Origin: Candidatus Aenigmatarchaeota archaeon
GTDB taxonomy: Archaea; Aenigmatarchaeota; Aenigmatarchaeia; CG10238-14; SCSR01
NCBI GenBank assembly: GCA_038999725.1
Contig: JAWBWS010000001.1
Span: forward strand, 32,001-96,000
Direction: 5' to 3'
DNA: 64,000 nt
Shown: in pieces, positions 3 through 19,075 of the stretch
How positions within the stretch are numbered: the stretch's first letter is position 1
How the letters are laid out: each line of letters begins with the position of its first letter
Translations under genes and position numbers: made by a program
Notes under the pieces: generated by a model
Told to the model about the DNA's origin: nothing
Database searches by the model: none
What the model saw: only the letters and a program-made list of their open reading frames with translations

Positions 3-3000
3 TTCTGGATAACAAGAGACGGTGTGAACTATGATTATAATTTAACATGCTTATCTTACCTTGGTAATTGTACCACAAACTACAATCCTAACTGCAGCTC
101 TTCTGTTGGAATTCAATATTGGAAAGCTGGTGCAACAGATGCCTGCTACCAAAAAGTTAACACGAGCAATGTAAGTTTAACAGTTTACGGTCAACTTAAC
201 ATTTCCATCATCCAACCAACATATGGAAAAATAATAAACCGTGATAAAATCACAAACTTCAACGCAAGCGTAAGTGATGATTGCAATCAACAAATAACAG
301 ATGCTTCTGTGAATTGGTACAATTCTTCTGGTAATTTCCTTGCCTCTGGTTATAACACCAACTGGAAAGTTCCTGCCACTTATAAATTAGGCCTTGAGAC
401 GATTTATTCAAATGTAACAAGACAATATTATGATGGTAACTCAAATGTCACGCTTGTTTATGTTTATGGTTGGAGTGATGTAAGCTATATAGAACCTTCA
501 AATTCTTCTGTTTATTCAGCTGGCTCTTTAATAAACATTAAATGTAAGGTTATAGATGGTAATACATCCTTGCCTCTAGAAAATTATGCTGTCTTCTTTT
601 ACAAGAATGGAAACAATTTTGCGAACAGCTCTACAAATTCTGACGGTATTGCAACAGCTTGGTGGAACACAATTGGTGAAAGTGCTGGTTGGTACAATTT
701 AACTTGTGTGATAAAAGACAATTCAACCCAATATTACAATGCCTCTATTTCACAAAGGGAGACTTGGATAAGGATAACAAGACCTTTGATAATCGATCAA
801 ATAATACCACAATACTCTATTATATACAGAAATGACTCTTTCTTCCCCTACCAAACAAACATTAGTGTGCGTGTAAAGGACGCAAACATAGGCATTGCTA
901 CCAATGCAAATGTAAGTTTTTACAATTCCTCTAGCTTGCTTGGCAGTTGTTTAACAAATTCAATGGGCTGGTGTGAGTTAATAAATTTCAACCCAGAAGA
1001 TACGATAGCTCCACAAGCTTATGTTATCTATATTAATGCTACTCGTCCTGGAAATGAAAATTCTGAAACCAACTCAACATATATAATCATAAAAGGAAAG
1101 CTCAACACAACCATAATTTCTCCATTGAACAATAGCTACTATTCCAAATCTCAGCCAATTCCACTACAGGCTAATGGAACAAGCGAGAATGGAGAAAGTT
1201 TCTTGATTCTTAACCCAATAATCAGATGGTACAATGAAACTGCACAAATAGGAGAAGGTAACGATACGTTTTTGCCACAATGGAAAGTTGCTGAACAATC
1301 AACTGGCATACATCAATTCATGGCAGTTGCAAGTAAAGATTACTTTGATGACGGAAAGGCAAATGTCACAGTAACAATAACAGGCCTTGCTGATGTGAGT
1401 TGGGTCTTGCCTACAGGTATTGTTCCTTATCCAGAATCTTTTGAACCAACTTGTTTAGTTAAAGATCATGACTCTCAAGCTGGTATACCTAACTATGTTG
1501 TTAATTTCTCTTACAAGTGGGAACCTTCTACACAGTTTATATTTAATGGTAGCTATCTCACGAATTCTTCTGGTTATGCTAGTTATAGCTTCACACCAAC
1601 ACAAAAAGGACACATAACCTTTAACTGCACAATTGGAGACAATGAAAGTCAATACTACTCAGCAAATATCAAAGAAGATTTAGAAACAATTTGGGTTAAG
1701 GATGTAACTCCACCAAGAATTTCTGATGTTTCTATGGTTCCTAATACTAGTTTAGAAGCCAACTTAAATTCAACAATTATAACAGCAACGATTTGGGACA
1801 ATTATTGGATAAATTCTGTTTGGGTCAACATAACTCTGCCAAATCAAAGTTATGTGATAATTCCAATGAGCAACATCACAGTACCAGAAATTGGCTTTGG
1901 CTATTACAATGCAACTTATAGAGCAAGTTATTTGCCATCAGTTGAAGGAATTTACAGTGTGAGAATTTATGCAAAAGATGAGGCTCCTGAATATAATGTG
2001 AATTACACGTTCGCTGGCTACCTTGAAGTTTTCGGTAAATCTTATGGAAGTTTGGAGCAATGTGTTAACAACACAGAAGATGGCAATCTAACAGATTGTG
2101 ACAGTGAAATAGAGGCTCCCTTCATCACCCAAACTCAAGGCTTTAATTTTGAGGTTAAAGTTAACTTCACTAACTTGGGACCAACCACAATGTATTCGGT
2201 AAACTTGACACATCAAGACTCAGGATATATGAGTTACAATGAAAGTGAAAAGAATTGTGGTACTCTTTATGCTAGTCAGAGCTGTATTTGGATTTTCTTG
2301 GCAACAGTTTTACCAGCAACACCACCACAAACTTTAGAAACTAAGGTGAATGCAACATGGAGAAATCCTGATTTGAGTATAAACTCGAGTGTGGGTATAA
2401 CTCAAATAAATGTTCACTCTAATCCTGTGCTCAACATACTCCAAGAGAAATTAGAGAATATTACACCTCACAACAAATACAGTTTTGTTGGAATTTTAAA
2501 TGTTTCATCGGATGGAAATGATGAAGTGTTGAATGTTGGGTTGGATGCCTTTGGTTTGTCAACACTGCCAGAAGGTCATAAAAGCTTTGCTGCTTGTTCA
2601 TTTGGTAATCAAAGTTGCGAACTTGTACTTATACCAACCCAACTTGGAAGCATGCCAGCAGGAACTCGATTGCCTGTTAATGTTTATGTTAATATTCCAT
2701 TTGGTACCTCTCCAGGCTTCTACTTATTGAACATAAGAGCTTACGGGGAAGCTCCTCTCGGCGGAACTTTAACCGACACTGCATTGTTAAATATAACTAT
2801 TCCTCTGAACACAAGTTGGGTGAGAACTCCTGAAACATTTGGCACAATTCTCGCTCCTTTAAACACTAGAGGAATAATTGGATACATAAATGTTTCAAAC
2901 ATAGGTAATGTGAAAATAGGCTTTTCTCAATCAGAGCAAGATTGTGGGAGTGAAATAGGTGGACAACTTGGTGGAACTCTGCTTGTCTCAGAAGATCCTT

Positions 3001-6000
3001 CTACAGGATTTGATGTTGAAAGAACTTCTTACAGGCTTATAAATGTGACGTACAATGTGCCGTCAAGTCAACCAGAAGGCTTGTATTGTGTGAGAATTGT
3101 AATAAAGAATTCAACAGCAACTCCGAGCCAGCAATCCACTAATGTTATATTGAACGTTACTGATGTTCCACCAACAATAACAGATGTTTTGATTTATCCA
3201 ACTGTTTTTGAAATTGGTTTTGAAAATGTAACAATTCAAGCAAAGATAACTGACAATTTTGGTGTGAATGATAGCTGGATAAATGTCACTCAACCAGATG
3301 GCTCAATTGTAATTCAGCCTATGAATGTCTTTGACTCAACTTACAATACAACTTATTCGAGTTTGAAGGTTGGAATCCATAAAGTAAAGATTTGTGCAAG
3401 GGATGTTCGAAACTTAACAGGTTGCACTCAAGAATATGAAATAGAAGGTTCGGAAACTACCTTCCTCGAAATCTTGCCAAATGTAACAAAAATAATTGCA
3501 AACAACATAACCATTTATTCTCCCCAAACATTCTCGATAAATGTAACCTTAAACAACACTGGTGGCTCAAGAGCCAAAGATGTTAACTTGAGTATAGAAG
3601 GTTCTGAAAATGTGAGCTCAGACCCACAATTGCTATATTATGGTTTAATATCCAAGTGGTCTTCCAAGAGCAATGTAACAACTATAACAATAGCTGCAAA
3701 CACTGTGCCTGGTTTATATCATGCTAACCTAACTGTAAATTGGACCAATTTGAATAACACGCTCGGCAGAAACAATTTAACACTTGAAATAAATGTAACT
3801 GAAAATCAATTTGTTCATGCTTTAGAAGAAAAGCTAACAATGTTAATAGAAGCTGGTACTGCTAGTACTAAAAAGTTCACAATAAAGTCGGCTGGGAATG
3901 TTAATGCTACCAATATAACCTTTGCTTGCTATTCTGGTGAAGTTTGCTCTAATTTCACAGTATCATTTAGTCCAGATAACATAAACTCCTTGGGTGTAGG
4001 GGAAACTGCTAACATAAATATAACTGTAACAGTTCCACCAAACTATCTTTCAGGTACTCACTTAGGTATTGTGAGAATAAATTATGATGAAGAATACGCA
4101 GAACTTTTGATAGAAGTTAGAGTACCTATGAACATCTCCTGGATGCAAACTCCCCCTGTGTTGAAGAAGAAAGTTTTCGGAAATGAATCTGGAACTTTTG
4201 GTGTAATAACTATAATCAACACAGGTAATACACCAATCCCAATGAACATGAGTGTTAATGGAACTATTGCTGATAAGTTGTTACTTAATGCAACACAGTT
4301 TACACTAGGATATAGGGAAGTTAAATATATAGGGGTGAACTATTCTTCTCCAGATGTTGAGAGAGACTCAAACTTCACAGGCTTTATAACAAGTCAAATA
4401 ATTGGTGATTTGGCTGAGAACGCTTCAGTTAGAGAGATATCAACTTACGCTGAACTTTATGTCTACAACTACAAGGTTTCTGTAATAACTCCAAATAAAG
4501 ATAGCCCGATTTTGAATGTCAATCCAGGAGATTTGTTGCTGGCTAAAGTTAATGTGACATCAAATTCAACTCCAGTAACAGTTGGTATGAGTTTTGATGT
4601 TGCAGTTTATAATTCTTCAACATCCCTACAAGCGAACATTAACTCTTCTCAATTCAACAGTTCAGATTCTCTCTGGTATGTTAGATTTTACGCCCCAAGC
4701 TTAAGTTTGGCTAGGATTTACAACCTCAACATCACTGCAAACTACACTTTATTTGAAGGTAGGGTAAGGTCTAGTTTTTCAGAAGACTCTATTGTTTATA
4801 AAGATGAAGTAAAGCCTGAAATAGATGTTTACATGCCAATAAGAATAGCTGCAAACACAAGTGTACCAATAAAAGTAAATGTAACGGAAGATGGCGGTCT
4901 TAAAAATGTTTCATTCTGGGTGAAGTATCCGGATGGCTCAATTGAAGAAATTGACCTACAGTTTATGGGTAGATTTGATAATAATTACACTTATGCTACA
5001 AACTTCACCAATACTTCCTTAATTGGTATATACACTCTCTCAGTAAAGGCTTGTGATTTAAGTGAGAATTGTGCTGAAAGAAGCAAAACATTTGAAATTT
5101 ATCCAACTGCATTCTTCTCTGGCTACGCTAAGAATGTAGAAGAAATAGAAGAGTCACCACTCTTACTCAACTTCTTGTTCTATGACGTCAACACAACCAA
5201 TTTAAGATTTAATTTCACTTCAAATGCTTCAACAGGCTATTACAATGAGACAATTGACCTGAAATCTTATGATCTTGTTATAGCAACAAAAGATGAAGGT
5301 TTCAAAAACTCCATTAATTTCTACAACCTTACAATTCTCACAAACTTTTTCAATCCTGTAATTCTTGGAAAAATATCAAACACGAGAACAACTAGCAGTG
5401 CGCTCAAAGGAATTTACTTTGATACTGTATTAAATGCATCAAACATCACTCTCACCATAGAATTCTCTGATTGTGTCAATGAAGGTTGTGGAGTCAGAAT
5501 TTTTGATCCAAATCATTTAGGAATCTACAAATACCAAGGAAACTGGACACCTAAAGTTAGCCACTCACAAAACACTTTATGGACAAGAGTAAGCAATCTT
5601 GCTGGAGACAATTCTGATAATTCGGTGAATTTAACGACTCTTACAGCAACGGCAAGAATTCCTGGTAAGGGAGTTTATATTTTGGCAGAATTCATTTGTG
5701 GAAATAATGAATGCGAAACTACATTAGGAGAGAACACTAATAATTGCCCGATGGATTGTCCTTCAGTACCATCTGCACCTGCAGCTGCCCCGCCTGTTGC
5801 AGCTGCTCCACCAGGTCCTGGGATTGGACCTGCACCCACCATACCAAGCGTGCCTACTCCTGTGCCGTTTGAGATAAAATCAACTCTGCTTGAAACTGTG
5901 TTATTCCCAGGAGAAGAGAAAGTCTTTTCTATAGATATAACAAACAATTTAGATAATAGTGTAGGTGCTACTGTTACCGTAGAAGGACCTGCTTTTGCTT

Positions 6001-7730
6001 TGTTAACTGTACAAAGACCTGTATTGAGAGTGTTAGCAAAATCAACAGAAGTTGTTAACATAAAAGCTTATGCATCACCAACAACTGCTCCTGGAATTTA
6101 TCCTGGTGAGATAGTTGTCACAATTGGTAACTCTACTCACAGAACTCCTATAACAATAAAAGTTCAGGCAGTTGTAGAGCCTTTGCTTGACGTTAAAGTT
6201 AAAGTGTTATCAAAAACTGTAGCTCCTGGTGAAAATCTTGTCTTTGAGGTCTCACTCATAAACATGGGTCAAACTTCAAAAATTGAAGATATAACAGTAA
6301 CTTACAATATCAAACCAATATCAGATCCAACAAAAATCATTACAACAAGTAAAGAAACTTTAGCTGTAGAAAATATTTTGACTTATAGGAGAGAAATTCA
6401 AATTCCAGAAGATGTACCACAAGAAAGGTATATAATTGAAGTCAACGCAAGTTATTGGTATGGAAGGAAATATGCTTCCTCTGCTGATAGTTTTGATGTT
6501 AGTGAATTGCCTGTACCTCTTGTAATATTAAGAGCAGTCCTCCTTAATCCACTAACTTATATTGTATTGTTCTTGGGAGTGCCCTCTGTAATAATAGGAG
6601 GTAGATGGTATGCAGCTTACCGAGCAGCAAAGCTTGCAAAAGCAAGGTATATTGCACCCATCGATTTCAAGGCCTTGCCTAAAGCTGGACCAAACTCTAT
6701 AGAGGTTGGAAAAATTGCGGAAACAGATATTAAAGCCTATATAGATATTTCTCAGTTGATAATGCACTCTATAGCGGCCGGTGGTACTGGTTCAGGTAAG
6801 TCTGTCTCCGCCATGATATGTGCTGAAGAATTGCTTAAGAGAAAAGTCCCAGTTATAGTATTTGATCCAACTGCACAGTGGACAGGATTCATGAAGCCAT
6901 GTAAACTTAAACCCATGTTAGATTTGTATCCAAAGTTCGGGCTTAAACCAACGGATGCAACGAGCTTCAAAACAAATATAGTGCTTGTGGAAGATCCTAA
7001 CATGGAAATAGATTTGAAGAAATACATGAATCCAGGTGAAATTACGGTCTTTGTGATGAACAAGCTCAAGCCTGAGCAGTTAGACGCCTTTGTTAGAAGA
7101 AGTGTACAGGCTGTGTTTGACATGAGGCCACCAGAATCTAAAGAGATAAAGCTCTTGATGGTGTGGGATGAGGTTCACAGATTGCTTCCAAAGTATGGAG
7201 GTAAGGGAGGATATGTTGCAATTGAAAGGGCGTGTAGAGAATTCAGAAAATGGGGAATTGGTGTTTTTGTGATATCACAAGTTTTGTTAGATTTCAAGGG
7301 TGCAATTAGAGCAAACATAGCAAACGAAATTCAGTTGAGAACAAAATATGAAGGAGATATAGGAAGGGTGAAATCGAAGTATGGTGCTGAGTATGCTTCC
7401 AAAGTTACAAGGCTTACAATTGGTACTGCACTATTCCAGAATCCTGAGTACAACCATGGAAGACCTTGGTTCATCAGCTTTAGGCCCTTGCTACACTCTC
7501 CATTTGCTTTAACTGATGAAGAAATTAATCAATATGTGAAACTAAATAAGAAAATTGAAGAAATTGGAGGGAAAATAGAGAAATTGAAGGGAAAAGGTGT
7601 AGACACTTACGATTTAGAAATAGAGTTGAACATCGCTAAAGATAAGATTAAAACAGCAGCCTTCAAGATGGCCGAAACTTACTTAGAATCTATAGAAAAA
7701 AGAATTGAAAAATTTGAAAAAGGTAAGTAA
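3..7730 (+). CDS. Giant membrane-anchored surface glycoprotein (Ig-like/NEW3-like repeats, Cys-rich motif, Pro/Ala linker) fused after a TM helix to a HerA/FtsK-like (DUF87-type) ATPase; 5'-truncated by the window edge
   Basis: Frame is open from position 3 (FWITRDGVNY...). Very many NxS/T sequons, CGNNECETTLGENTNNCPMDC motif, TM PLTYIVLFLGVPSVIIGG, Walker A GGTGSGKS, Walker B LLMVWDEVH, REFRKWG and ISQ motifs. Confidence 0.85.
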   Translation, partial: FWITRDGVNYDYNLTCLSYLGNCTTNYNPNCSSSVGIQYWKAGATDACYQKVNTSNVSLTVYGQLNISIIQPTYGKIINRDKITNFNASVSDDCNQQITDASVNWYNSSGNFLASGYNTNWKVPATYKLGLETIYSNVTRQYYDGNSNVTLVYVYGWSDVSYIEPSNSSVYSAGSLINIKCKVIDGNTSLPLENYAVFFYKNGNNFANSSTNSDGIATAWWNTIGESAGWYNLTCVIKDNSTQYYNASISQRETWIRITRPLIIDQIIPQYSIIYRNDSFFPYQTNISVRVKDANIGIATNANVSFYNSSSLLGSCLTNSMGWCELINFNPEDTIAPQAYVIYINATRPGNENSETNSTYIIIKGKLNTTIISPLNNSYYSKSQPIPLQANGTSENGESFLILNPIIRWYNETAQIGEGNDTFLPQWKVAEQSTGIHQFMAVASKDYFDDGKANVTVTITGLADVSWVLPTGIVPYPESFEPTCLVKDHDSQAGIPNYVVNFSYKWEPSTQFIFNGSYLTNSSGYASYSFTPTQKGHITFNCTIGDNESQYYSANIKEDLETIWVKDVTPPRISDVSMVPNTSLEANLNSTIITATIWDNYWINSVWVNITLPNQSYVIIPMSNITVPEIGFGYYNATYRASYLPSVEGIYSVRIYAKDEAPEYNVNYTFAGYLEVFGKSYGSLEQCVNNTEDGNLTDCDSEIEAPFITQTQGFNFEVKVNFTNLGPTTMYSVNLTHQDSGYMSYNESEKNCGTLYASQSCIWIFLATVLPATPPQTLETKVNATWRNPDLSINSSVGITQINVHSNPVLNILQEKLENITPHNKYSFVGILNVSSDGNDEVLNVGLDAFGLSTLPEGHKSFAACSFGNQSCELVLIPTQLGSMPAGTRLPVNVYVNIPFGTSPGFYLLNIRAYGEAPLGGTLTDTALLNITIPLNTSWVRTPETFGTILAPLNTRGIIGYINVSNIGNVKIGFSQSEQDCGSEIGGQLGGTLLVSEDPSTGFDVERTSYRLINVTYNVPSSQPEGLYCVRIVIKNSTATPSQQSTNVILNVTDVPPTITDVLIYPTVFEIGFENVTIQAKITDNFGVNDSWINVTQPDGSIVIQPMNVFDSTYNTTYSSLKVGIHKVKICARDVRNLTGCTQEYEIEGSETTFLEILPNVTKIIANNITIYSPQTFSINVTLNNTGGSRAKDVNLSIEGSENVSSDPQLLYYGLISKWSSKSNVTTITIAANTVPGLYHANLTVNWTNLNNTLGRNNLTLEINVTENQFVHALEEKLTMLIEAGTASTKKFTIKSAGNVNATNITFACYSGEVCSNFTVSFSPDNINSLGVGETANINITVTVPPNYLSGTHLGIVRINYDEEYAELLIEVRVPMNISWMQTPPVLKKKVFGNESGTFGVITIINTGNTPIPMNMSVNGTIADKLLLNATQFTLGYREVKYIGVNYSSPDVERDSNFTGFITSQIIGDLAENASVREISTYAELYVYNYKVSVITPNKDSPILNVNPGDLLLAKVNVTSNSTPVTVGMSFDVAVYNSSTSLQANINSSQFNSSDSLWYVRFYAPSLSLARIYNLNITANYTLFEGRVRSSFSEDSIVYKDEVKPEIDVYMPIRIAANTSVPIKVNVTEDGGLKNVSFWVKYPDGSIEEIDLQFMGRFDNNYTYATNFTNTSLIGIYTLSVKACDLSENCAERSKTFEIYPTAFFSGYAKNVEEIEESPLLLNFLFYDVNTTNLRFNFTSNASTGYYNETIDLKSYDLVIATKDEGFKNSINFYNLTILTNFFNPVILGKISNTRTTSSALKGIYFDTVLNASNITLTIEFSDCVNEGCGVRIFDPNHLGIYKYQGNWTPKVSHSQNTLWTRVSNLAGDNSDNSVNLTTLTATARIPGKGVYILAEFICGNNECETTLGENTNNCPMDCPSVPSAPAAAPPVAAAPPGPGIGPAPTIPSVPTPVPFEIKSTLLETVLFPGEEKVFSIDITNNLDNSVGATVTVEGPAFALLTVQRPVLRVLAKSTEVVNIKAYASPTTAPGIYPGEIVVTIGNSTHRTPITIKVQAVVEPLLDVKVKVLSKTVAPGENLVFEVSLINMGQTSKIEDITVTYNIKPISDPTKIITTSKETLAVENILTYRREIQIPEDVPQERYIIEVNASYWYGRKYASSADSFDVSELPVPLVILRAVLLNPLTYIVLFLGVPSVIIGGRWYAAYRAAKLAKARYIAPIDFKALPKAGPNSIEVGKIAETDIKAYIDISQLIMHSIAAGGTGSGKSVSAMICAEELLKRKVPVIVFDPTAQWTGFMKPCKLKPMLDLYPKFGLKPTDATSFKTNIVLVEDPNMEIDLKKYMNPGEITVFVMNKLKPEQLDAFVRRSVQAVFDMRPPESKEIKLLMVWDEVHRLLPKYGGKGGYVAIERACREFRKWGIGVFVISQVLLDFKGAIRANIANEIQLRTKYEGDIGRVKSKYGAEYASKVTRLTIGTALFQNPEYNHGRPWFISFRPLLHSPFALTDEEINQYVKLNKKIEEIGGKIEKLKGKGVDTYDLEIELNIAKDKIKTAAFKMAETYLESIEKRIEKFEKGK

Positions 7731-9203
7731 ATGCCTGAAAAAATTAAGAAGGAAGAATTGTTAAAAGAGATTGCTGATATAAAGTCTTTGATATCTCATT
7801 TAGAAGATGAGTATAGGAAAGCAAGCATCTCAGAAAAAAATTATCAGGAACTAAGGAAGAAATATTCAGAAAGATTGAAAGAATTAGAAGAGAAGTTGGG
7901 ACTCAAAGAAGAAGAAAAACCAAAGGGTGGTTTTTTAAAAAAGCTATTAGGAGAGAAAGAAGCTAAACCAAAGGTAAAATTAGAGGAAGTTGAAAAACCT
8001 GAAAGAGGAGAGCTTGAAGTTGGAGAAATTGAAGAGATGACACCAGAAGTTATAGAAAGGTTGGCACGGCAAGTAGCTGAAGAATCGGGAGTAACTGCAA
8101 CTGAAACTGAAGTAGAAGAAGAAATACCTGAAAAACCAGAAAGTATGCCATTAATTGAGATAGAAAAATTGAAAGCGATGATTGATGCTATAAGAGAAGC
8201 AAAACATGCTACAGATGAAACCATACACAATATCTCTGAAAGCATAGGTGAGTTGAGGTCGATGATATTTCAAACAGAAGGCTCTTTAAGGGAGACGATA
8301 TTAAAACTAGAGAAGATAGAAGATGAAGTATCCGAAATAAGGCCAAGAGAAATTGAAAAAAAGTTTAGGGAGTTGAACACAACTCTAGAAAAGCAACAAA
8401 TGCTTATTGAAAAATTTGATAGAAAGTCAGAAGATTTGTCAAACAAGATCAATGAAGTTCATAAAATTTTGAAGAGTATTGGTGGAATAGAAAATTTGAT
8501 TAACTTGAACAAAGATATACAAAAGAAAATTAAAGAAATGAAGGAAGCTCTTAAGTATACGGAAAGGCTTGCCCTTAAAACAGAGAAAATCTTCATTGAG
8601 TTGAATAAAAGTTTGGAAGATTTTGTGATTTATAAAGCAAGGCAAGAAAATTTGGATGAAGTGGTAAAAGAGTTAATAAAATCTGTTGATGGAATAAATT
8701 CAAAACTTGAAACTTTTTTAACTAGAAGAGATTTAGAAATGGTCAAAAGCGATATTCTGGTGCTACAAAAACAAATTGAAGAAATCAATAAAGTTTTGCC
8801 AGTTGCTCAAATAAAATTGCCTGAACCGATAACTGCTCTGAGAAAAGAAAGAGAAGATATTTTGCTTTTCTTAGACTCTTTGGAAGAGCAATTAAAAACG
8901 GGCAAAATAAGCATTGGAGAATATGAGGAAGTGAAGAGAAAAAATCTAAGTAAACTTTCGGAAATTGAAAACAAGTTGAAAAAGGAATGGGAAAAAATTG
9001 CAAAGTTGATAGAAAAGGGGGAAATTCCAAAAGAGGAAGAAGTTGTAGAAACTGAAGAAAGAGAAGAGATCCGAGAAGAAGAGCTAAGTTTAGAAGAGGA
9101 AAAACGGCTTTTAAAAGAAGAAGAAATACAGACAGAAGAAAGTGATGAGGGAAGGGAAGAAATGGCCGAAGTTCTTAAAAAGATTAAGGAGAGGGTAAAG
9201 TGA
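7731..9203 (+). CDS. Long coiled-coil, Glu/Lys-rich cytoplasmic protein
   Basis: 490-aa ORF abutting the previous stop codon; heptad-rich; two LE..x..G/A.IS...Y.E motifs; amphipathic GGFLKKLLG. Confidence 0.8.
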   Translation: MPEKIKKEELLKEIADIKSLISHLEDEYRKASISEKNYQELRKKYSERLKELEEKLGLKEEEKPKGGFLKKLLGEKEAKPKVKLEEVEKPERGELEVGEIEEMTPEVIERLARQVAEESGVTATETEVEEEIPEKPESMPLIEIEKLKAMIDAIREAKHATDETIHNISESIGELRSMIFQTEGSLRETILKLEKIEDEVSEIRPREIEKKFRELNTTLEKQQMLIEKFDRKSEDLSNKINEVHKILKSIGGIENLINLNKDIQKKIKEMKEALKYTERLALKTEKIFIELNKSLEDFVIYKARQENLDEVVKELIKSVDGINSKLETFLTRRDLEMVKSDILVLQKQIEEINKVLPVAQIKLPEPITALRKEREDILLFLDSLEEQLKTGKISIGEYEEVKRKNLSKLSEIENKLKKEWEKIAKLIEKGEIPKEEEVVETEEREEIREEELSLEEEKRLLKEEEIQTEESDEGREEMAEVLKKIKERVK

Positions 9204-9955
9204 TTATTGGGGTTATAAGCGCTAAAGGTGGTGTGGGAAAAACTACTGTCGTCTCTAATCTTGGAGCTGTTTTGGTTAAAGAGTTTGGAAAAAAAGTTCT
9301 TGTGGTAGATGGAAATATAACTACACCAACCCTTGGAATTCATCTAGGCATGCTTTCACAAGAGAAAACTATAGATGATGTTTTAGATGGAAATTTAATT
9401 TTTAATCAAGCAATATACATCCATCCATGCGGCTTACACATTGCACCTGCTAGCTTATCTTTGCGCACAAGATACCCTGATGTAGAAAAATTGAAAGAAA
9501 TATTGAGAGGGGTGAAAGAGTCTTATGATGTTATTTTTATTGATGGGGCTGCAGGCATAGGTAGAGAAGTCTTATCTACCATTCAAGCAAGCGATGGTGT
9601 TTTGGTTGTCACAAATCCAGAAATGACTTCTATTGTAGCTGCTATAAAGGCTATAAAAATTTCAAATACACTAAATATACCTGTTCTTGGAATAGTGATT
9701 AACAAAGTTACCAAAGGAAAACATGAATTAAAAATTTCTGATGTGGAAGAGTTGTGTGAAGTGAAAGTGATTTCCACCATACCCTATGATAAAAAGATAC
9801 CTGAAAGTATTAAAAAAATGACTCCAGTTGTTTTACTATATCCAAACTCACCCTCAAGTCTTGCCTTTAAATCTTTAGCAGCTTACATAATTGGAGAAGC
9901 CTATCCTAAGGAAACATTTTGGGATAAATTAAGGAAAATTTTAAGATTGGGTTAA
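9200..9955 (+). CDS. minD: MinD/ParA-family ATPase (paralog 1)
   Basis: Deviant Walker A SAKGGVGKTT, DGAAG, C-terminal amphipathic FWDKLRKILRLG. Confidence 0.9.
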   Translation: MIIGVISAKGGVGKTTVVSNLGAVLVKEFGKKVLVVDGNITTPTLGIHLGMLSQEKTIDDVLDGNLIFNQAIYIHPCGLHIAPASLSLRTRYPDVEKLKEILRGVKESYDVIFIDGAAGIGREVLSTIQASDGVLVVTNPEMTSIVAAIKAIKISNTLNIPVLGIVINKVTKGKHELKISDVEELCEVKVISTIPYDKKIPESIKKMTPVVLLYPNSPSSLAFKSLAAYIIGEAYPKETFWDKLRKILRLG

Positions 9956-10603
9956 ACTTTTGGCTTCTTCTTTTTCTATCAAAATCTCGTGAGAAAGATC
10001 GTGTATTAAGCTAGACAAATCTTCCAACTCTTTCATAAACATAGATTTATTCGAATCGGCCAAACCTTTACCTAGAGAAGAAATTTTATAAATATTTTTA
10101 AATCTACCTTCTAGTCTCTCCAATTTTTCTTTCTTAGCCACATCTACTTTATTTGCTACAAGAAGAAATGGATATCCGTCAAAAAATTTTCTAATATTTT
10201 CAAAATTCTTCAATTGATTCTCTATAGGTTCGGAATTTTCAGAGACATCAAAAAGATAAATAAAATATTTTAAATTCATTTTTTTCAATTCTTGTAAAAT
10301 ATTTGGCTGTCCATCAACAAGATGTGGAAGTTCTATGAATTGAAATTTTTGATCACCAAGAGTTGTTGTGGCAACATTCAAATTTTGGAACGGATGAAGT
10401 GAAGGATAAGATTTCGTTACCATGTTTATGAAAGAAGTTTTTCCACTTCCTTTCATACCTAAAACAACTATAGAGGGTAAGGATTTGAATTCCTTTATCA
10501 ATTTCTCTCTGAACACATAAAATCTCCAGAAGAAAATTGTAATAGAGGCTGCTAAAACTAAAGGGAGAGAGTGAAATATTGGGAAGCTTTCTGGAAGCAA
10601 CAT
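9941..10603 (-). CDS. Membrane-anchored small P-loop GTPase
   Basis: N-terminal TM; G1 GMKGSGKTS; G4 NKVD; G5 ISS; G3 degenerate (ELPH). Confidence 0.75.
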   Translation of the reverse strand: MLLPESFPIFHSLPLVLAASITIFFWRFYVFREKLIKEFKSLPSIVVLGMKGSGKTSFINMVTKSYPSLHPFQNLNVATTTLGDQKFQFIELPHLVDGQPNILQELKKMNLKYFIYLFDVSENSEPIENQLKNFENIRKFFDGYPFLLVANKVDVAKKEKLERLEGRFKNIYKISSLGKGLADSNKSMFMKELEDLSSLIHDLSHEILIEKEEAKSLTQS

Positions 10604-10607
10604 TTCA

Positions 10608-11051
10608 TCACTTCATGATAGATAGTAGCTTGTCAATTAATAATATCTCACCATAAATAATTAAGCATAAGCCAAAGAAAAAACTCAAAAATTGAAGGAT
10701 TGTAAATGGGAAATCCACCATAGCTATCGTGAAATTAAAACCCACTCCTATCCAGAATAAATTTTTCTCCAAGAAATCCTTAAAGAGTAAGAAGAGAAAA
10801 AGGAAAGGTAAAACTAAAACAAATGCCCCTGCTACTGGAAAAAAGATTGAATGTTCTTTTGGACAATTCATCTCGGTATAAGTTCCGAGTTCGGAATCAA
10901 GAAGAACTAACTTTATTCCCTTGCACCCCATACCCATGCCCAGAAAAAAATGACCCATCTCATGCATTAACAAAGTGGAAGAACAAATAAGAAGGTTGAA
11001 AAGGGTGACAAAAAGCAGGGGAAGGATTATATATTTTTTGACTTTTTTCAT
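10608..11051 (-). CDS. Small polytopic membrane protein with HExxH (M50-like zinc peptidase)
   Basis: LMHEMGH within the first TM; four hydrophobic segments. Confidence 0.6.
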   Translation of the reverse strand: MKKVKKYIILPLLFVTLFNLLICSSTLLMHEMGHFFLGMGMGCKGIKLVLLDSELGTYTEMNCPKEHSIFFPVAGAFVLVLPFLFLFLLFKDFLEKNLFWIGVGFNFTIAMVDFPFTILQFLSFFFGLCLIIYGEILLIDKLLSIMK

Positions 11052-11099: not shown

Positions 11100-14000
11100 A
11101 TGAAAAAATTTGCAGGTTGGTTATTTTTTGTACTTATTTCTTTATTGATAATCTACATCTTAAGAACAAGGCTTACTGGCTTTTTTGTAGGTTTTGGTCC
11201 ACCTGCCGGCGAATTTGAGTGGTGGAATGTATCTTGGAGATACAGGCTTAGGTTAGAAGTGAATTCCACTACATACAACAGAGTTGATTGGCCGATAGAG
11301 TATCATATAAATTTTACCGAGTTATTGCCTTCTGGCACTTTTGATGAAAATTCTATAAGAGTGATAGAATACAGCCCTTCTGGTTCAATTCTATATGAAA
11401 TACCAAGTCAGTTTGAAAAAGACGAAAACTTTGACGCTTCTTCCAATGCAGTAGGAACATTAGTTTTCCTTATGAATGGGACTACACAGGCCAACTCTAA
11501 AAGGATATATTTTGTTTACTATGATACTCAAGAAAATGGACTCAAATCTCCTCCAAATTATCCAATAGGTTTGAGATATAGTTGGGATGGTCGAATTGTT
11601 AATGTTAACAACACTATACTTAAATTCTATTTTGACACAAATAGAGGAGAGAACACTTCTGGAATTTATCATGTAGAAGATATGGGTGGTACTGTTGTTA
11701 TAACAGCAAGTCCTTCAAGTAGAACTGCTGAATATCTTGAATACTCTAATGGTACAACTAACTTAACTTTTGATTTAAGAAACAGCGTGAGTTTTTTTGA
11801 AGGACCAATAAGACTAACTATCAAACAAGTTGGAGATGAGGTAGTTTTTGGGGATCCTGAAGAAAAAACTGGTGAAGCTAGAGTGATTAAGAAATATCAT
11901 ATTTACAATAAGGTAGGAGCTCAAGAATATGGAACTTTCATAAAAATAGTACAAAAAATTGAAAACATAGCAGATTTTGCTATAGAAAGAAGATCTACAC
12001 CAGCAGGAGCTTTAGCTTTTGACCTCGACAGAACACTCTCTTCAGGCTCTATATACACTCTAGACTTCAATTCTTCTGATCCATATTCTTGGGTGTGGGG
12101 CTCGGGATATGGTGGAGAGATAGTTGGTATAATCAACCTTTTAGAAGAGGGAACTTCTAAGTATTTTTCAACAAACAGCACAAGTTATGGAAGAATAGGA
12201 ATCCAGCTTGACACAGAAACTATACCTTCTGGCTCTTACATCAAACAAGACTCTTTGATATATTTTGCTGCTTGGGGTGGAAGTGATGCTGTCTCAGAAT
12301 TTTTAGCAATAAAAGACAGGTTTGTCAATCCTGTCAATATTGTAGAATATTTGCCTGAAGCTTGGTATGTCACAATATCCCCATCTACAAATGCTACAAT
12401 CTACAACAGAAATGAAACTGTTTTAATACTTGGAAATATTTCTCTTGGTGATCCTTACCATTTGATAAAATACATGAATGCGACCTTAGACATGGGTACA
12501 CCCTCACCAGAAGATGATCAAACTATAATTTTGTACGATGATGGGACTCATGGTGATTTAGAAGAAGGAGACATGGTATTCACAAATCTTTTCTATCTAC
12601 CTAATTATGCAACTATTGGTACATGGACGATTAATTTCACAACTTTCACAGAAAATTTTGAATTCTTGAACTCAACAGTCCTTGCTTTCAATGTTACAAA
12701 TGTGTTAAATGTTAGTGTTGTTGTCACAAATAAAAAACCTATGGTCGGCTCAATCGTGATCGCAAACATATACCTAAAAAATTACAGGCAAGACTCTTGG
12801 ATTGCCGGAGCAACTATAAACTGTAGTTTCGATTCAAATGAAGTGATAAATAAGACAGATTACAACAATGGAACTTATTCAGTTAATTTTACTGCTCCCG
12901 CCCAAGAGGGAGAATATATCTTGGAATGCAATGCAACTAAAAATGGAAATTTCGGAAGTGGTACATATACATTCACAGCAGAACCCGCAAACACAAGCAT
13001 GATTATAGCTGTTCAACCTCAAAATCCAATCGTCTCTCATGTAAGTTTGTATGAAAATGACAGCTTTGTGATAGAAGCGAACATGAGCAACATCGGAAAT
13101 GCCACATCCTATTCCACAAACATAACTCTGGAACTTTTGAGTGGATGGTATGCGAATATAACTTTAGAGCAGTGTGGAGATGTGGAAAAGAATAGCTATT
13201 GTTTGAAGGGATTCAACATAACTGTCCCAAATGGTACCTTACCAGGAGATTATTACATAAATATAAGTGCGAGTTGGAAGAATCCTGACCAAACAATCTC
13301 GTCAAACAAAACTGATGTAAGAGTAACAGTTGAATCAAACCCAAAAGTAGATGTTAAGCAAGAAAGGGTTTCTTCTGAATGTGGAGATGGAATTTGGAGC
13401 ATAGTAGGAAATTTCACAATTTTGTCGATAGGAAATGATGCTTTAGAAGGTATTACATTCTCTTGCGTTTCTGGTGAAGTTTGTGAGAATTTTGTGGTTA
13501 AGTTTATACCAGAAAGTATATCTAGCATACCCGTGGGAGCAAATGAAAATGTCTCAATAAATGTTACAATACCCTTAGGCTTTACACCTGGAACTTATGA
13601 GGGAATTGTGAATGTTTCTGCTAGCAATGATGGTTTTGATACTTTTATTCTTGAAGTTCGTGTTCCACCAAAGACCAATGTTTCCATAGTATCAAACATA
13701 TCAAGCTACACTGCAAGCAAAATAACGAAAGAGGATAATGAAACTTTTTATTTCGAGATTAATGCAACAAATATAGGAAATGGAAGTGCAAGATTTGTAA
13801 ATATAAGTGTTTCTCCTCCTCTTGGTTGGCTTGTAATGCCAAGCTTAGAAGAATGTGGAAATCTTATAAAAGATGCTAGTTGCCAGAAAGAGTTCAATGT
13901 AACAATTCCTGGAGCCACGTCACCAGGAAATTATTTAGTAAATATTTCAATAAACTGGACCCAGTCAGACAATTCCATGGGAACAAATAAAACTTCTATA

Positions 14001-16964
14001 ACAGTAGCTGTAACTTCAAATCCTTTGATAAGTGTAAGTGAAGACGAAATTTCTGGTATAGTTCACGATGGTGCTGAAGAAATAGTAGGAAATTTCACCA
14101 TTTTGTCGATAGGAAATGATGCTTTAGAAGGTATTACATTCTCTTGTGTTTCTGGTGAAGTTTGTGAGAATTTTGTGGTTAAGTTTATACCAGAAAGTAT
14201 CTTAATTCTTCCTGAAAACTCAAACCAATCTATTATGGTTAATGTCACTGTACCATTAAATTATCCAAACGGAACTTATGAGGGAATTGTGAATGTTTCT
14301 GCTAGCAATGATGGTTTTGATACTTTTATTCTTGAAGTTCGTGTTCCTGAAAACAGGACATGGGACCTACAACCAGAATATTGTGAACGATCAACACAAC
14401 AACCTGAAGGTGTGGTTTGTGAGGTTAATGTAACAAATAAAGGAAATGTAAAAATAGGTTTTATTGTTCAGCCGGAAGAAGGCAACTATACAAAAGTCAA
14501 TGAAACCAGCTTTGAAGTGGATAGACTGAGTTGGCATGCATTCAAAATAACTTACAATGTTACTGATGTGCCACCTGGAACTTATAATTCAACTTTTGTT
14601 GTAGATGCTGTACAAATAGATGCAAATCCTGACAATAAAACTGTCGTAGTTTCCTTAGTTCCTTATATCCCACCTGTGATAAACATTTCTGTAACTCCAA
14701 ATGAAACGGAGCAAAACATGAGTGTTTTGATTTCTGCAAATGTCACGGATAGGTCAGGAAGTGGAATTGTTTGGACAAAAGTCAATATAACTAGACCAGA
14801 TGGTATTATCGACTCTTTTGACATGTTTCTCTTGGAAACAAGCGGGAACTTAACAAGGTGGGAGATAACCTATCCCAATGGTATAAGCGGAAGCACTCTT
14901 GAAAGAGGAATTTACAATATAACTGTTTATGCAAGAGATAACATAGGTAATGAAGGAAATTCTAATTCTTCTTTTTCGGTTTACATAAAGCTCAACATCT
15001 TGGTGTCCACACTTTCTGATAAATATTATCAGGGAGATACAGGCTCTGTTTATTACAGTGTTAGAGATTTCACAAACAACCCAATCGAAAACTCTACTGT
15101 AAACTTCAGCATAATTGATTCCCAAAGAAATATCACTTACCTTTCTCCAAACTTCCAAACAAATTCTGATGGTACCATAACTCCAATGCCAACTTTTTCT
15201 ATTCCATCAGATGCTCCCTTGGGAAATTATACCCTTATCTCTAATTCAAAATTTTTTGATAAGGTTGCTAACAAGATTGTTGAAAAACAAGTCAATCAAA
15301 CTTTCCAAGTTCTATCAAGAACGGTTACTGTTACCGGTCTATTTGCTGATATAGAGACTGCTATTGTATGGTATCCTGAAAATATAATGAAGTTTGGGAT
15401 TTTGGTTTATAATGGTGAAGGTAAATCTGTTGATCCTACATCCATGAACCTAACAGTTTATGATCCTGCTGGCAATCTATACTTCACTGCCAATTTATCT
15501 CAAATGACCAAGCAAGCAACAGGCTTCTACATTTATCAGTATGCCATGCCTGTTAACACTCCAAGTGGAATGTTTTTAGCTGTTTTAAATTTGAGTCAAA
15601 ATGAATTCCAAACCATGAAGCTCAAAGCTTTTAGAGTTGCTCATGGCGGTCCATATGATGTGAGGATAACTCTTCTTGAAAATGAAGTTGAGCAAGGAAG
15701 CTACTTAGATTTTATTCTTGTGATAGAAAACAAAGGAGAAGTTTCTCAAGATGTTTTTATTCAGTATTGGGTTTCTTCTCAAAATACAACTTACTACACC
15801 ACATCAGAAGCTGTTTACACTCCAGCCTTGACAAATCAAAGTTTTACAAGAAGTGCTTATATTTATTCAAATCAGCCTTTGGGAAATTACTTTTTAAATG
15901 TGAAAGTTACTTATGATACAGTCCAACCACCAATCTTGGCAAATGCAAGCTTTACTGTTATTGCAAGAACTTTAAACATTACTCCACCATCACCAGTTCA
16001 TGTAAGTTATCCTTATCTAACAGGTGCAATTCCCATCCCAACCCCAACTGAAAAAATAATTGCAAGTATTTTCATCTCCCGCTACAATAGTAACATAAGC
16101 TTGACAAGAGGTTTTTCTAGAATTGAAACTGTTATTATTGAGAACAATGGTCAAATTGATTTGGAAAATGTAAGCCTATTCTTGCTTGGGATACCAACAA
16201 GTTGGTTCAATGTGACTCCTGAAAATTACAAGCAACTTGAAAGGGGAAAATCAACACCCTTCTTAATAACATTCTACATCCCCAGAAATATTAATCCTGG
16301 CGAATATCATGCCACATTAGTAGCAACTTCTGGTGTCGTCAGTGACCAAAGAAAAATAACTCTAACAATCTTTCAATCAATGAAAGAGCTTCTGGCCCAA
16401 GAAATGAGTAAGATAGAAGAAGAACTGCAAGAGCTTATAATTGATACTAAAGTTGCAGAAAAAGAGGGAAAAGACGTCTCTGCCATTCTTTTGCTGATAG
16501 ATGGGATAAAAACACAAATGAAGCTTGCAAAGGAAAATATTGAAAATGAAAATTTTGAAGAAGCGCTAAAAAATATAAACACTGCTAGAGATTTGATTTT
16601 AAGAGCTAGGGAAGTGCTTAGTAAGCTTGAGGTTTTGAAGGCCAAGGCAGTTATTCCTTGGTGGCTCATACTACCAATTTTGCTTCCTGTTTTGATTTTT
16701 AGCTTGTATTTCATCTATAGGAGAAGACCAAACATCGTAAGACCCTGGCTGATTCAACTTGAGAGAGTTGTGAATTTGGCTAAAAAGGGAAGGGAAAGCA
16801 AAGAAGAGTTGATAAAGGAGAGGGAAAAATTGGCAAGAATGCTTGAAATTTTGGAGAAAGAGAGGAGGGAAAAAATAATAAGTCATAGTGCTTACGTTGA
16901 GATGAAAAAAGGAATAGAGAAGAAGATAGAGAGAATAGAGAAGAAAATTTTGAGCTTAAAATAG
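11100..16964 (+). CDS. Large secreted, membrane-anchored surface glycoprotein with repeated Ig-like/NEW3-like domains
   Basis: N-terminal signal/TM, WWNVSWRYR N-terminal motif, LYDDGTHGD motif, internal ~227-aa repeat, helical bundle, C-terminal TM and coiled tail. Confidence 0.85.
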   Translation: MKKFAGWLFFVLISLLIIYILRTRLTGFFVGFGPPAGEFEWWNVSWRYRLRLEVNSTTYNRVDWPIEYHINFTELLPSGTFDENSIRVIEYSPSGSILYEIPSQFEKDENFDASSNAVGTLVFLMNGTTQANSKRIYFVYYDTQENGLKSPPNYPIGLRYSWDGRIVNVNNTILKFYFDTNRGENTSGIYHVEDMGGTVVITASPSSRTAEYLEYSNGTTNLTFDLRNSVSFFEGPIRLTIKQVGDEVVFGDPEEKTGEARVIKKYHIYNKVGAQEYGTFIKIVQKIENIADFAIERRSTPAGALAFDLDRTLSSGSIYTLDFNSSDPYSWVWGSGYGGEIVGIINLLEEGTSKYFSTNSTSYGRIGIQLDTETIPSGSYIKQDSLIYFAAWGGSDAVSEFLAIKDRFVNPVNIVEYLPEAWYVTISPSTNATIYNRNETVLILGNISLGDPYHLIKYMNATLDMGTPSPEDDQTIILYDDGTHGDLEEGDMVFTNLFYLPNYATIGTWTINFTTFTENFEFLNSTVLAFNVTNVLNVSVVVTNKKPMVGSIVIANIYLKNYRQDSWIAGATINCSFDSNEVINKTDYNNGTYSVNFTAPAQEGEYILECNATKNGNFGSGTYTFTAEPANTSMIIAVQPQNPIVSHVSLYENDSFVIEANMSNIGNATSYSTNITLELLSGWYANITLEQCGDVEKNSYCLKGFNITVPNGTLPGDYYINISASWKNPDQTISSNKTDVRVTVESNPKVDVKQERVSSECGDGIWSIVGNFTILSIGNDALEGITFSCVSGEVCENFVVKFIPESISSIPVGANENVSINVTIPLGFTPGTYEGIVNVSASNDGFDTFILEVRVPPKTNVSIVSNISSYTASKITKEDNETFYFEINATNIGNGSARFVNISVSPPLGWLVMPSLEECGNLIKDASCQKEFNVTIPGATSPGNYLVNISINWTQSDNSMGTNKTSITVAVTSNPLISVSEDEISGIVHDGAEEIVGNFTILSIGNDALEGITFSCVSGEVCENFVVKFIPESILILPENSNQSIMVNVTVPLNYPNGTYEGIVNVSASNDGFDTFILEVRVPENRTWDLQPEYCERSTQQPEGVVCEVNVTNKGNVKIGFIVQPEEGNYTKVNETSFEVDRLSWHAFKITYNVTDVPPGTYNSTFVVDAVQIDANPDNKTVVVSLVPYIPPVINISVTPNETEQNMSVLISANVTDRSGSGIVWTKVNITRPDGIIDSFDMFLLETSGNLTRWEITYPNGISGSTLERGIYNITVYARDNIGNEGNSNSSFSVYIKLNILVSTLSDKYYQGDTGSVYYSVRDFTNNPIENSTVNFSIIDSQRNITYLSPNFQTNSDGTITPMPTFSIPSDAPLGNYTLISNSKFFDKVANKIVEKQVNQTFQVLSRTVTVTGLFADIETAIVWYPENIMKFGILVYNGEGKSVDPTSMNLTVYDPAGNLYFTANLSQMTKQATGFYIYQYAMPVNTPSGMFLAVLNLSQNEFQTMKLKAFRVAHGGPYDVRITLLENEVEQGSYLDFILVIENKGEVSQDVFIQYWVSSQNTTYYTTSEAVYTPALTNQSFTRSAYIYSNQPLGNYFLNVKVTYDTVQPPILANASFTVIARTLNITPPSPVHVSYPYLTGAIPIPTPTEKIIASIFISRYNSNISLTRGFSRIETVIIENNGQIDLENVSLFLLGIPTSWFNVTPENYKQLERGKSTPFLITFYIPRNINPGEYHATLVATSGVVSDQRKITLTIFQSMKELLAQEMSKIEEELQELIIDTKVAEKEGKDVSAILLLIDGIKTQMKLAKENIENENFEEALKNINTARDLILRAREVLSKLEVLKAKAVIPWWLILPILLPVLIFSLYFIYRRRPNIVRPWLIQLERVVNLAKKGRESKEELIKEREKLARMLEILEKERREKIISHSAYVEMKKGIEKKIERIEKKILSLK
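13401..14347 (+). repeat. Intragenic direct repeat with 681-bp period
   Basis: 13401-13519 vs 14082-14200 (2 mismatches); 13590-13666 vs 14271-14347 identical. Confidence 0.9.
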
Positions 16965-18577: not shown

Positions 18578-19075
18578 TAAAGCCCAAAAATATTCAAAAC
18601 TTGTGTTCTTGAAGAAACCCCATGCTACCGGAGAGTTTATATTTGAAAGATCTTTATTTCCCACATCTTCTGTCCAGTTCCACTCTATTCTGCCTGCAAA
18701 GAAGTAAGTAGAATCAGTCTCATTTTTGAAGACTATAACCCCACCAGCTGCATATTTTGTTGGGTCATCTTTTCCGTAAGGCCTTTCAGCTTCGTCCGTT
18801 AATGTGTCTACATAAGCATAGATATTGGTCACATTTACAGAGCCTGTGTTTATTATGTTTAGATATTGTGCTGTTCCAGCACTCCCTGGATTAATATTAG
18901 ACCAAGATAAGCTCTCGGGTATTACCGAGATTTGTGCGACAGCTGCAACACTTACGCTAACAGTAACTGTATCTTCTACCGCTAATGTTAATGGGGGAAA
19001 GAGGAGAAAGCTGATAATCACTAGAAGAATTAGCTTCTCGCAACTTTTGATTTTAACATTACTGTAAACCTTCAT
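18185..19075 (-). CDS. Secreted pilin-like Ig-fold protein, copy B
   Basis: Signal peptide; DTVTVSVSVAAVAQISVIPESLSWSNINPG; highly similar to copy A. Confidence 0.7.
   Translation of the reverse strand: MKVYSNVKIKSCEKLILLVIISFLLFPPLTLAVEDTVTVSVSVAAVAQISVIPESLSWSNINPGSAGTAQYLNIINTGSVNVTNIYAYVDTLTDEAERPYGKDDPTKYAAGGVIVFKNETDSTYFFAGRIEWNWTEDVGNKDLSNINSPVAWGFFKNTSFEYFWALGNGTNGYCNNTGAQFAIEDDVDNGTVETRTPTTSNIQLDSGDVNWGYFSVNRATAPLYGSCVAAYYDCTKIYIYKYDKRSGFTSCANSRYIQAPNLVPGETHTLTLRVYVPYGIPDGSLSTATFTVYASG

Follow-up and report, generated by a model that had tools for sequence, protein, structure and literature searches.

Why would an archaeal cell carry a ring-type ATPase on the inner end of a surface protein more than ten thousand residues long? 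The question is raised by the first gene in a 64,000-nucleotide stretch of DNA from a Candidatus Aenigmatarchaeota archaeon (assembly GCA_038999725.1, contig JAWBWS010000001.1). We call this whole stretch the window; it is C1:32001-96000, that is, part of contig C1 of a 729,769-bp genome in nine contigs that is 93% complete. The window has archaeal signal recognition particle RNA and tRNA genes, and the organism is therefore archaeal; the same DNA occurs in hot-spring metagenomes. We are highly confident that the gene encodes a single giant surface protein, predicted to be heavily N-glycosylated, with a C-terminal membrane anchor and a HerA-clade ATPase (window 6507-7730). Judged by its sequence, the protein belongs to the SPEARE family as described in PMC6642349 and PMC10266531. 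To the full reading that we develop below, in which the giant protein would be the ring-motor base of a host-contact apparatus, with nucleic acid as the leading candidate for what the motor handles, we give an even chance.

The open reading frame occupies 3..7730 on the forward strand, as do all features below unless stated otherwise. Its 5′ end is open at the window start, and its stop codon is at 7728-7730. Followed upstream, the frame is free of stops back to base 2 of contig C1, giving 13,242 codons in 39.7 kb, or 5.4% of the genome; because it is still open at that base, the protein must have at least 13,242 residues. An earlier description made from the letters and open frames of the window (here, the sequence-only reading) had spoken of an ectodomain of more than 2,100 residues and had proposed recovering the upstream sequence. 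With that sequence in hand, the huge size stands and the figure proves an understatement, the ectodomain having at least 12,835 residues.

Translated in order, the window part of the frame gives a long region rich in Asn, Ser, and Thr, a single hydrophobic segment, and a Lys-rich tail of about 375 residues. A hydropathy scan places one transmembrane segment at residues 2169-2200 of the window frame (6507..6600), and this is the sole 19-residue stretch scoring above 1.6 (peak, 2.17) in all 13,242 residues. In the AlphaFold 2 (AF2) model of P0002, our name for the transmembrane-plus-ATPase protein, helices at residues 9-18 and 21-51 mark the same region. The 12,835-residue ectodomain has 622 N-X-S/T sequons where its composition predicts 231, and the 375 residues of the cytoplasmic part contain none. 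The sequon-rich part lies outside, a single helix crosses the membrane, and the sequon-free, Lys-rich tail is in the cytoplasm. Both the lone membrane segment and the abundance of sequons had been picked out by the sequence-only reading.

Most of the ectodomain is built from a repeat of about 330 residues that spans residues ~95 to 11,000 of the whole protein. The copies are divergent, with a median identity of 29% and only 17 of 1,028 off-diagonal matches reaching 50%. The final ~2,200 residues, the portion that lies within the window, are mostly unique and stand outside the repeat array. Pfam finds scattered beta-sandwich families in the ectodomain (NEW3, Big_1, Big_7, Big_3_3, DUF11, and Invasin_D3); laminin-G, protease, and toxin-like domains gave no match at an expect value (E) of ≤1e-3 over the 13,242 residues, a span that excludes an assembly gap of about 800 residues. 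Within the window, the end of the ectodomain (3..5696; about 1,900 residues, N-glycosylated by sequon count, with matches to NEW3, Big_1, and Big_7) is followed by a Cys motif, CGNNECE..CPMDCP, and a Pro/Ala-rich linker of ~36 residues (together 5697..5867, the linker at 5760-5867, from our reading of the sequence), which together may form a hinge or a processing site. A juxtamembrane portion of ~210 residues (5868..6506) resembles a beta-sandwich of the ASH (E 0.0015) or Nis1 (E 0.00087) kind, weakly and below the cut-offs of both families.

The beginning of the protein probably lies on another contig. Bases 1-2517 of contig C4 (reverse strand) hold a frame of 839 codons, cut off by the end of the contig, with a winged-helix-like head, a transmembrane helix, a spacer rich in Ser and Thr, and an insert resembling an intein/Hint domain; its Pfam matches are weak and below cut-off (Intein_splicing, E 8.5e-4; HTH_24, E 0.026), and laminin-G, protease, and toxin-like domains have no Pfam match in this piece at E ≤0.1. 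The assignment follows from a homologue (51% identity, E 1.7e-128) that opens a 14,236-residue frame in the related genome G004; the ATPase that closes that frame (locus L017) has 84% identity to the ATPase of the window. Frames in other relatives measure 11,428, 11,249, and 9,184 residues. A search for a suffix-prefix overlap between the ends of C4 and C1 found none; the probable join is drawn from homology. Collinearity with another relative, G001, indicates that ~790 residues are missing between the two contigs, which would bring the total to an estimated 14,800 residues or so. Thus, with its N-terminus added, the giant protein is probably 14,000 to 15,000 residues long.

Is the joining of such an ectodomain to an ATPase real? 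We searched the ATPase tail against 1.84 billion representative proteins and found 915 relatives at E ≤1e-3, 359 of them at E ≤1e-30, the closest being labelled Aenigmatarchaeota. In the best 150 of the 915, which are 356 to 7,665 residues long (63 have at least 2,000 residues and 9 at least 5,000), the ATPase is C-terminal or nearly so, and hydropathy places a transmembrane segment immediately before the ATPase in 141 of these 150. A scan of species-representative genomes yielded at least 604 loci, of which the best 80 are the basis for the locus counts given here; in 73 of the 80, no stop interrupts the ATPase frame before the locus ends upstream. Among 201 sampled Aenigmatarchaeota genomes, 92 have the ATPase at E ≤1e-40, and the frames that end in it reach 14,526 residues, with seven, including that of the window, exceeding 13,000. 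The junction itself is bridged in metagenome runs X1, X2, and X3, all of one study and X1 possibly the source sample: in each, a single contig covers window 5800-7220 with zero or one mismatch, running from ectodomain through the transmembrane helix to Walker A.

An assembly chimera or a decaying pseudogene could be suspected from the truncation of the gene at a contig end, from the repetitiveness of the ectodomain, and from the fact that, in every run, the contigs break off at window ~7220-7307. That break falls within the most conserved motif of the family, though, and 39.7 kb without a stop codon, repeats with so low a median identity, the recurrence of the architecture in 73 of 80 independent loci, and the bridging contigs from three runs make an artefact extremely improbable. 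Some joints within run contigs, such as one with a 768-base skip, had sides of 20-27 letters at 90% likeness; we took these to come from other organisms or paralogues. The fusion of ectodomain to ATPase is genuine and conserved, which settles the worry about a chimera voiced in the sequence-only reading.

What kind of ATPase, then, is it? The cytoplasmic part comprises a HerA-clade, RecA-like core (6666..7508, supported by Pfam, alignment, AF2, and Foldseek) and a three-helix C-terminal tail (7515..7727; AF2 helices 343-368, 374-388, and 392-411, with a predicted local distance difference test score [pLDDT] above 90). Pfam recognizes the DUF87/HerA central domain (E 1.3e-11; 45.4 bits, compared to a cut-off of 23.2) and, more weakly, HerA_C (1.1e-6), T4SS-DNA_transf (7.7e-5), and FtsK_SpoIIIE (0.002). 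Among NCBIfam models, the match to HerA_Thermprot is far below threshold (39.3 bits against 800), as is the second best, to CedD (E 1.7e-9; 36.9 bits against 600), which covers the P-loop region only. When a profile of the 73-sequence family alignment was compared with the Protein Data Bank (PDB), all eight matches at E ≤0.01 were HerA-type (HerA, Sir2-HerA, DUF4297-HerA, and YjgR). No AAA_10 (VirB4-type) match was found by Pfam in the genome or in the giant protein, nor any CagE/VirB4 match in the protein; the genome also encodes two ordinary soluble DUF87 proteins.

Structure gives the same ranking. The AF2 model of the transmembrane helix plus ATPase is of high confidence (pLDDT 90.6; predicted template modelling score [pTM] 0.84). 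With Foldseek, ranks 1 to 26 are all HerA-type chains, the first other protein being the coupling protein TcpA at rank 27. With VIA-align, run against 48,161 chains, hexameric HerA (4d2i) comes top (Z 25.9, root mean square deviation 2.8 Å over 254 residues), followed by DndH-C (23.9), VirB4 (4ag5; 23.1), TrwB (18.3), FtsK (17.4), and EccC (~16.7). The ATPase ranks HerA-first by sequence and fold, with VirB4 near in fold. Thus, the membership of the HerA/FtsK superfamily proposed by the sequence-only reading, and the profile-based placement that it suggested as a check, come out as HerA. As HerA fits best, the label VirB4/TraG-like, used in 2023, is acceptable at the level of the superfamily and is not the best fit.

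The catalytic residues are intact. Numbered as in P0002, and with invariance counted over the 73 aligned sequences, K104, D126, E228, and R253 are present in 73 of 73. K104 belongs to Walker A (GGTGSGKS, 6780-6803), D126 has its codon at 6864-6866, and E228 is in Walker B (..WDEVH, 7158-7178, with its D-E at 7167-7172). Downstream lie REFRKWG (7236-7256), which contains the arginine finger R253 (7245-7247), and an SQ motif (7269-7286) with Q264 (7278-7280); Q264 is likewise invariant in the alignment, and its role as a Q sensor is putative, as inferred by the sequence-only reading. In the alignment to 4d2i, the four residues correspond to HerA K154, D176, E356, and R381, so that the R of RKWG falls on R381. 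These HerA residues, R381 being an arginine finger that acts in trans, are described as essential in the Sulfolobus enzyme (PMC4351679). The Walker motifs and the RK(W)G finger first seen in the letters are thereby borne out. Two further regions are conserved: the loop that leads from Walker B to the arginine finger, where H230, R231, K235, G237, G238, and G241 are invariant or nearly so, and the three-helix tail, where Y349, D372, D375, E379, and Y398 are near-invariant. This tail is the "coiled-coil at the tip" of the description in PMC10266531. From the pattern of invariant residues, we infer that ATP turnover is under strong selection, and the combination of invariant catalytic residues with a basic, glycine-rich loop argues for a working motor rather than a mere anchor.

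The architecture has been seen before. Hamm et al. described SPEARE proteins of Nanohaloarchaeota in 2019 as reaching 8,553 residues, mostly extracytoplasmic, with a transmembrane helix near the C-terminus (PMC6642349). In that account, the cytoplasmic portion was the most conserved and was interpreted as restriction-enzyme-like, similar cytoplasmic sequences were noted in Woesearchaeota, Aenigmarchaeota, Micrarchaeota, and Altiarchaeales, and proteomics showed that the protein is made, with the ectodomain found in other size fractions than the transmembrane/cytoplasmic parts. The 2023 redescription, as "giant membrane-anchored extracellular proteins" (SVXNc_0300, 9,409 residues, and BNXNv_0298, 8,880 residues), assigns to the cytoplasmic domain a VirB4/TraG-like ATPase plus a coiled coil, reports that a second ATPase gene follows, disputes the protease and endonuclease domains of 2019, and proposes that these proteins form "secretion channels (straws)" (PMC10266531). 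We also rejected the restriction endonuclease: in our searches ResIII is a P-loop match at E 0.1, and its withdrawal agrees with PMC10266531. A literature search of main texts found the architecture described nowhere beyond these two papers.

To connect the window to these proteins, we sampled 70 genomes of the phylum of a locus labelled Nanohalarchaeota. The ATPase is found in 27 and ends frames of 9,433, 8,891, 8,592, 8,315, and 7,869 residues, at 43-45% identity to that of the window; for the first three, E is about 1e-108. Going by matching lengths, we take those three to be the published proteins of 9,409, 8,880, and 8,553 residues. An ATPase paralogue of 620-680 residues follows each of these nanohaloarchaeal giant frames (for example, at G257:C1:270350-273369), instead of or before a coiled-coil gene, so that neighbourhoods of at least two kinds exist in the family.

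The window protein shares with the SPEARE proteins, so far as they are described, a giant adhesin-type ectodomain, one transmembrane helix near the C-terminus, a conserved cytoplasmic ATPase, and a helical tail. It differs from them in being bigger, in having no laminin-G, protease, or toxin-like Pfam domain at E ≤1e-3, and in its probable N-terminus, a membrane-tethered winged-helix and Hint domain rather than a plain signal peptide. Its ATPase ranks with HerA ahead of VirB4/TraG by sequence and fold, and its downstream gene encodes a coiled-coil protein, not the second VirB4-like ATPase of the 2023 description.

This coiled-coil protein (7731..9203; 490 residues, with a conserved core at ~141-423) is a constant neighbour of the ATPase. 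The stop codon of the giant gene ends at 7730, and the ATG of the coiled-coil gene begins at the next base. Of the 80 loci, 77 have the core downstream of the ATPase, and in the other three the flank is shorter than 310 nucleotides; wherever the flank reaches 1.5 kb or more, the core is there (75 of 75). The AF2 model is all-helical (pLDDT 80, pTM 0.29). In the ESM Atlas, the protein retrieves unnamed archaeal clusters and sub-threshold rows, among them a FliH/SctL row at a TM score of 0.37. Its C-terminal helical-hairpin motif (residues ~380-417) is repeated near the N-terminus, at residues 7-56 (profile i-Evalue 3.5e-9).

Farther downstream lies a 1,954-residue surface protein (11100..16964), which sequence and hydropathy show to have an N-terminal signal or transmembrane segment and a C-terminal transmembrane helix. 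Of the 57 loci whose flank measures 5 kb or more, 41 have the N-terminal 500 residues of this protein downstream of the ATPase; for that portion the ESM Atlas returned nothing above 0.86. Across the 201 genomes, this domain (E ≤1e-20) is present in 67: it occurs together with the ATPase in 63 and alone in 4, while the ATPase occurs alone in 29 and neither is found in 105, counts to be read with the caution that related genomes are not independent and that incomplete genomes hide genes. The 1,954-residue protein is co-inherited with the giant ATPase gene. In main texts, a literature search found no paper describing either the coiled-coil partner or a tie to the 1,954-residue protein.

How might these parts work together? 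By homology to HerA, a hexamer is expected. In the reading that we find most likely, six ATPase domains would form a HerA-like ring directly beneath the membrane, with each ATP site completed by an arginine finger from the adjoining protomer, and as many as six stalks would be brought together there. Each stalk would consist of at least 30 divergent supermodules of ~330 residues, made of beta-sandwich domains, and if extended could reach several hundred nanometres. The coiled-coil partner would act with the ring as stator, adaptor, or tether, and in most relatives the ring may also be associated with the co-inherited 1,954-residue protein, the three together making up the ATP-driven base of a host-contact apparatus. 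The ring would act on a polymer threaded through it or held at its pore, and here we favour host DNA or another nucleic acid over a purely structural role. HerA, DndH, and TdpA act on DNA, and the membrane-tethered CedB/CedD import it; since the HerA-clade enzymes that have been studied all handle DNA, nucleic acid is the leading candidate. We consider it an evenly balanced call that the protein is a hexameric, ATP-driven base of a host-contact fibre working with the coiled-coil partner; that the motor's substrate is DNA, an idea drawn by analogy, we hold with low confidence.

Several observations weigh against this proposal. Six single, poorly conserved transmembrane helices are unlikely to form a wide enough pore. 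In a hydropathy scan of the 17 open frames between 7.7 and 33 kb of the window, the range to which this search applies, no VirB6/CedA-like protein was seen, the sole polytopic protein being one of 147 residues discussed below. The HAS-barrel of canonical HerA is absent: in the AF2 model, about 50 residues, forming one helix that continues the transmembrane helix, precede the core. VirB4 comes within 3 Z units of HerA in the VIA-align comparison, and with so close a fold a protein- or pilin-handling role is conceivable. The coiled-coil partner matches only generic coiled-coil families in Pfam and nothing in the PDB at E ≤0.001 by Foldseek, and no fusion of it to the ATPase was found by hmmsearch in the 252 proteins searched; a BLASTP search of the 150 representatives likewise gave none. 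Finally, the ATPase gene was not found at E ≤1e-40 in 109 of the 201 sampled genomes of the phylum, and so is non-essential to the lineage.

How do other explanations fare? In the one already in print for the nanohaloarchaeal relatives (PMC10266531), which is also the conduit of the sequence-only reading, the giant proteins would be bundled into a channel, and a ring like that of VirB4 would drive effectors, DNA, or nutrients along it into or out of the host, as in a type IV secretion system. The structural match to the VirB4 C-terminal domain (4ag5), the weak Pfam matches to T4SS-DNA_transf and FtsK, and the second, short ATPase paralogue beside the giant gene in Nanohaloarchaeota speak for such a straw. 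However, the VirB4 N-terminal domain is missing, and sequence and Foldseek put HerA first. The evidence leans against a simple conduit because there is a single, weakly conserved transmembrane helix per protomer, no polytopic VirB6- or CedA-like protein nearby (7.7-33 kb), no AAA_10 match in the genome, and an ectodomain whose string of divergent beta-sandwich repeats is the build of a fibre rather than a tube. We therefore consider the straw improbable. A role as anchor or organizer is unlikely too, if less so: here an ATP-dependent ring would cluster and position adhesin fibres, at a pole or at the contact with a host, with the coiled-coil protein and MinD-type ATPases assisting and nothing being translocated. 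This would suit the poor conservation of the transmembrane helix, the lack of a channel partner in the same 7.7-33 kb, the constant presence of the coiled-coil protein, and the three MinD/ParA paralogues of the cluster. Yet a MinD gene is near the ATPase in only 18 of 80 loci, and even distant members share, without change, their catalytic residues and the loop that follows Walker B, which is more than a mere scaffold would call for. To our knowledge, moreover, all characterised HerA-clade enzymes, CedB/CedD among them, move along or pump a polymer.

VirB4 acts on pilins as a pilin dislocase, and a motor of this fold might similarly extract the C-terminal membrane anchors of the small secreted subunits whose genes lie downstream, and so supply a fibre built on the giant protein. 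Several downstream open frames do have a signal sequence and a C-terminal transmembrane helix, the VirB4-like fold is there, and the co-occurrence with the 1,954-residue protein (63 genomes with both, 4 with that protein alone, n = 201) is in keeping with it. Against this, 29 of the 92 genomes with the ATPase have no detectable protein of that type, and related genomes are not independent data points; we find the idea quite improbable. Still further from what we expect, and very improbable, is a two-ended, membrane-spanning tether and sensor that would serve as a contact-sensing feeding machine. In it, contact with the host, or tension, would free the winged-helix regulator of the N-terminus through cleavage by the Hint domain (site 1) and by a 147-residue protease (site 2); a six-protomer ring of the HerA type, with the coiled-coil partner as its stator in the manner of FliH/SctL, would import host DNA or nucleotides or reel the fibre in. 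FliH/SctL is the stator for the ATPases of type III systems. If true, this would be a kind of machine undescribed in any domain of life.

The candidate protease in that scheme is the polytopic protein noted above (10608..11051, reverse strand), which by its sequence has three predicted transmembrane helices, the first of which ends in a HEMGH motif. The protein has no Pfam match, is near the ATPase in 8 of 80 loci by tblastn, and looks like a miniature intramembrane metalloprotease of the site-2 type. Together with a membrane-tethered winged-helix/Hint N-terminus, it suggests regulated intramembrane proteolysis.

Returning to the ring-motor reading, how does the ATPase compare with motors that have been studied? 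Sulfolobus HerA (4D2I; DUF87/PF01935) is the best match in sequence and fold, with Walker A, the aspartate at HerA position 176, Walker B, and the arginine finger all conserved; the giant-protein ATPase differs in its membrane tether, in the missing HAS-barrel, in the conserved three-helix tail after its core, and in scoring below the NCBIfam equivalog cut-off. HerA's partner NurA, or an operon with it, was not found at the window locus, where the neighbours are the coiled-coil protein, MinD, and a GTPase. VirB4, VirD4/TrwB, FtsK, and EssC/EccC have the same superfamily membership and core fold and are ring motors sited at the membrane, with the resemblance of VirB4 confined to its C-terminal ATPase fold; they differ in having N-terminal transmembrane helices (two to four per protomer) or soluble N-terminal domains and in working within multiprotein translocons. 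We know of no ATPase of the VirB4, VirD4, FtsK, or EssC type that carries an extracellular domain thousands of residues long. Of the motors studied by experiment, the closest analogues are CedB and CedD, membrane-tethered HerA-clade ATPases of DNA import in Sulfolobales; according to PMC11868833, CedD is required for import, and proteins deleted for the transmembrane helix form homo-oligomers. Like them, the giant-protein ATPase is a HerA-clade enzyme tethered through a transmembrane helix. Unlike CedB/CedD, which are described as having a VirB4-like N-terminal domain, no ectodomain, and polytopic CedA/CedE partners, it has its transmembrane helix after a giant ectodomain, no such N-terminal domain, and no CedA-like protein nearby.

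Other genes of the locus are less closely tied to the ATPase. Directly after the coiled-coil gene comes an archaeal MinD-type ATPase (9200..9955; TIGR01969, 214 bits compared to a cut-off of 201.75), the first of three MinD/ParA-type paralogues found within 21 kb (9200-9955, 24573-25352, and 29365-30159, all on the forward strand) among genes for surface proteins; a Cdc48-type AAA ATPase follows the third (30543-32840). Overlapping the end of the MinD gene on the reverse strand is a small GTPase of the Ras/Arf/SR-beta type, recognized by its sequence and with an N-terminal transmembrane helix at residues 6-26 (9941..10603). Its link to the ATPase is weak, as it is nearby in 3 of 80 loci. Beyond the 1,954-residue protein, two secreted paralogues of ~290 residues (16972-17841 and 18185-19075, both on the reverse strand) differ in their N-terminal parts and are identical over their C-terminal ~90 residues, which points to a recent duplication or gene conversion.

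Elsewhere, Rfam recognizes six tRNA genes of 82-118 bases, with coordinates that include 35026-35137, 46988-47105, 52549-52630, and 63336-63439; ARAGORN finds only two, each with an odd anticodon call, and the tRNA genes probably carry introns. The open frames at the ends of contigs C5 (reverse strand) and C2 (forward strand) share an identical segment of ~40 residues (KVGIVNWF...KEYLK), and the assembly seems to break there at a repeated gene.

The window thus holds a new and very large member of a published, functionally unsolved family, for which the idea of a conduit is already in print. Its frame is among the longest, with at least 13,242 residues compared to 9,409 for the largest protein published in PMC10266531. 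Besides this size, what the present instance adds to PMC6642349 and PMC10266531, as far as those accounts go, is a coiled-coil partner that is always there, a link in the genome to another large surface protein and its fibre locus, the ~330-residue supermodule, and the probable N-terminus with its winged-helix and Hint domains.

The genomes of DPANN archaea are tiny, and these cells cannot do without host contact. Yet 92 of the 201 Aenigmatarchaeota genomes sampled, roughly half, devote up to 5-6% of their DNA to one gene of this kind. A ring ATPase joined to the inner end of a fibre that could extend for several hundred nanometres would be the most concrete molecular handle on how such cells hold, sense, and exploit their hosts.

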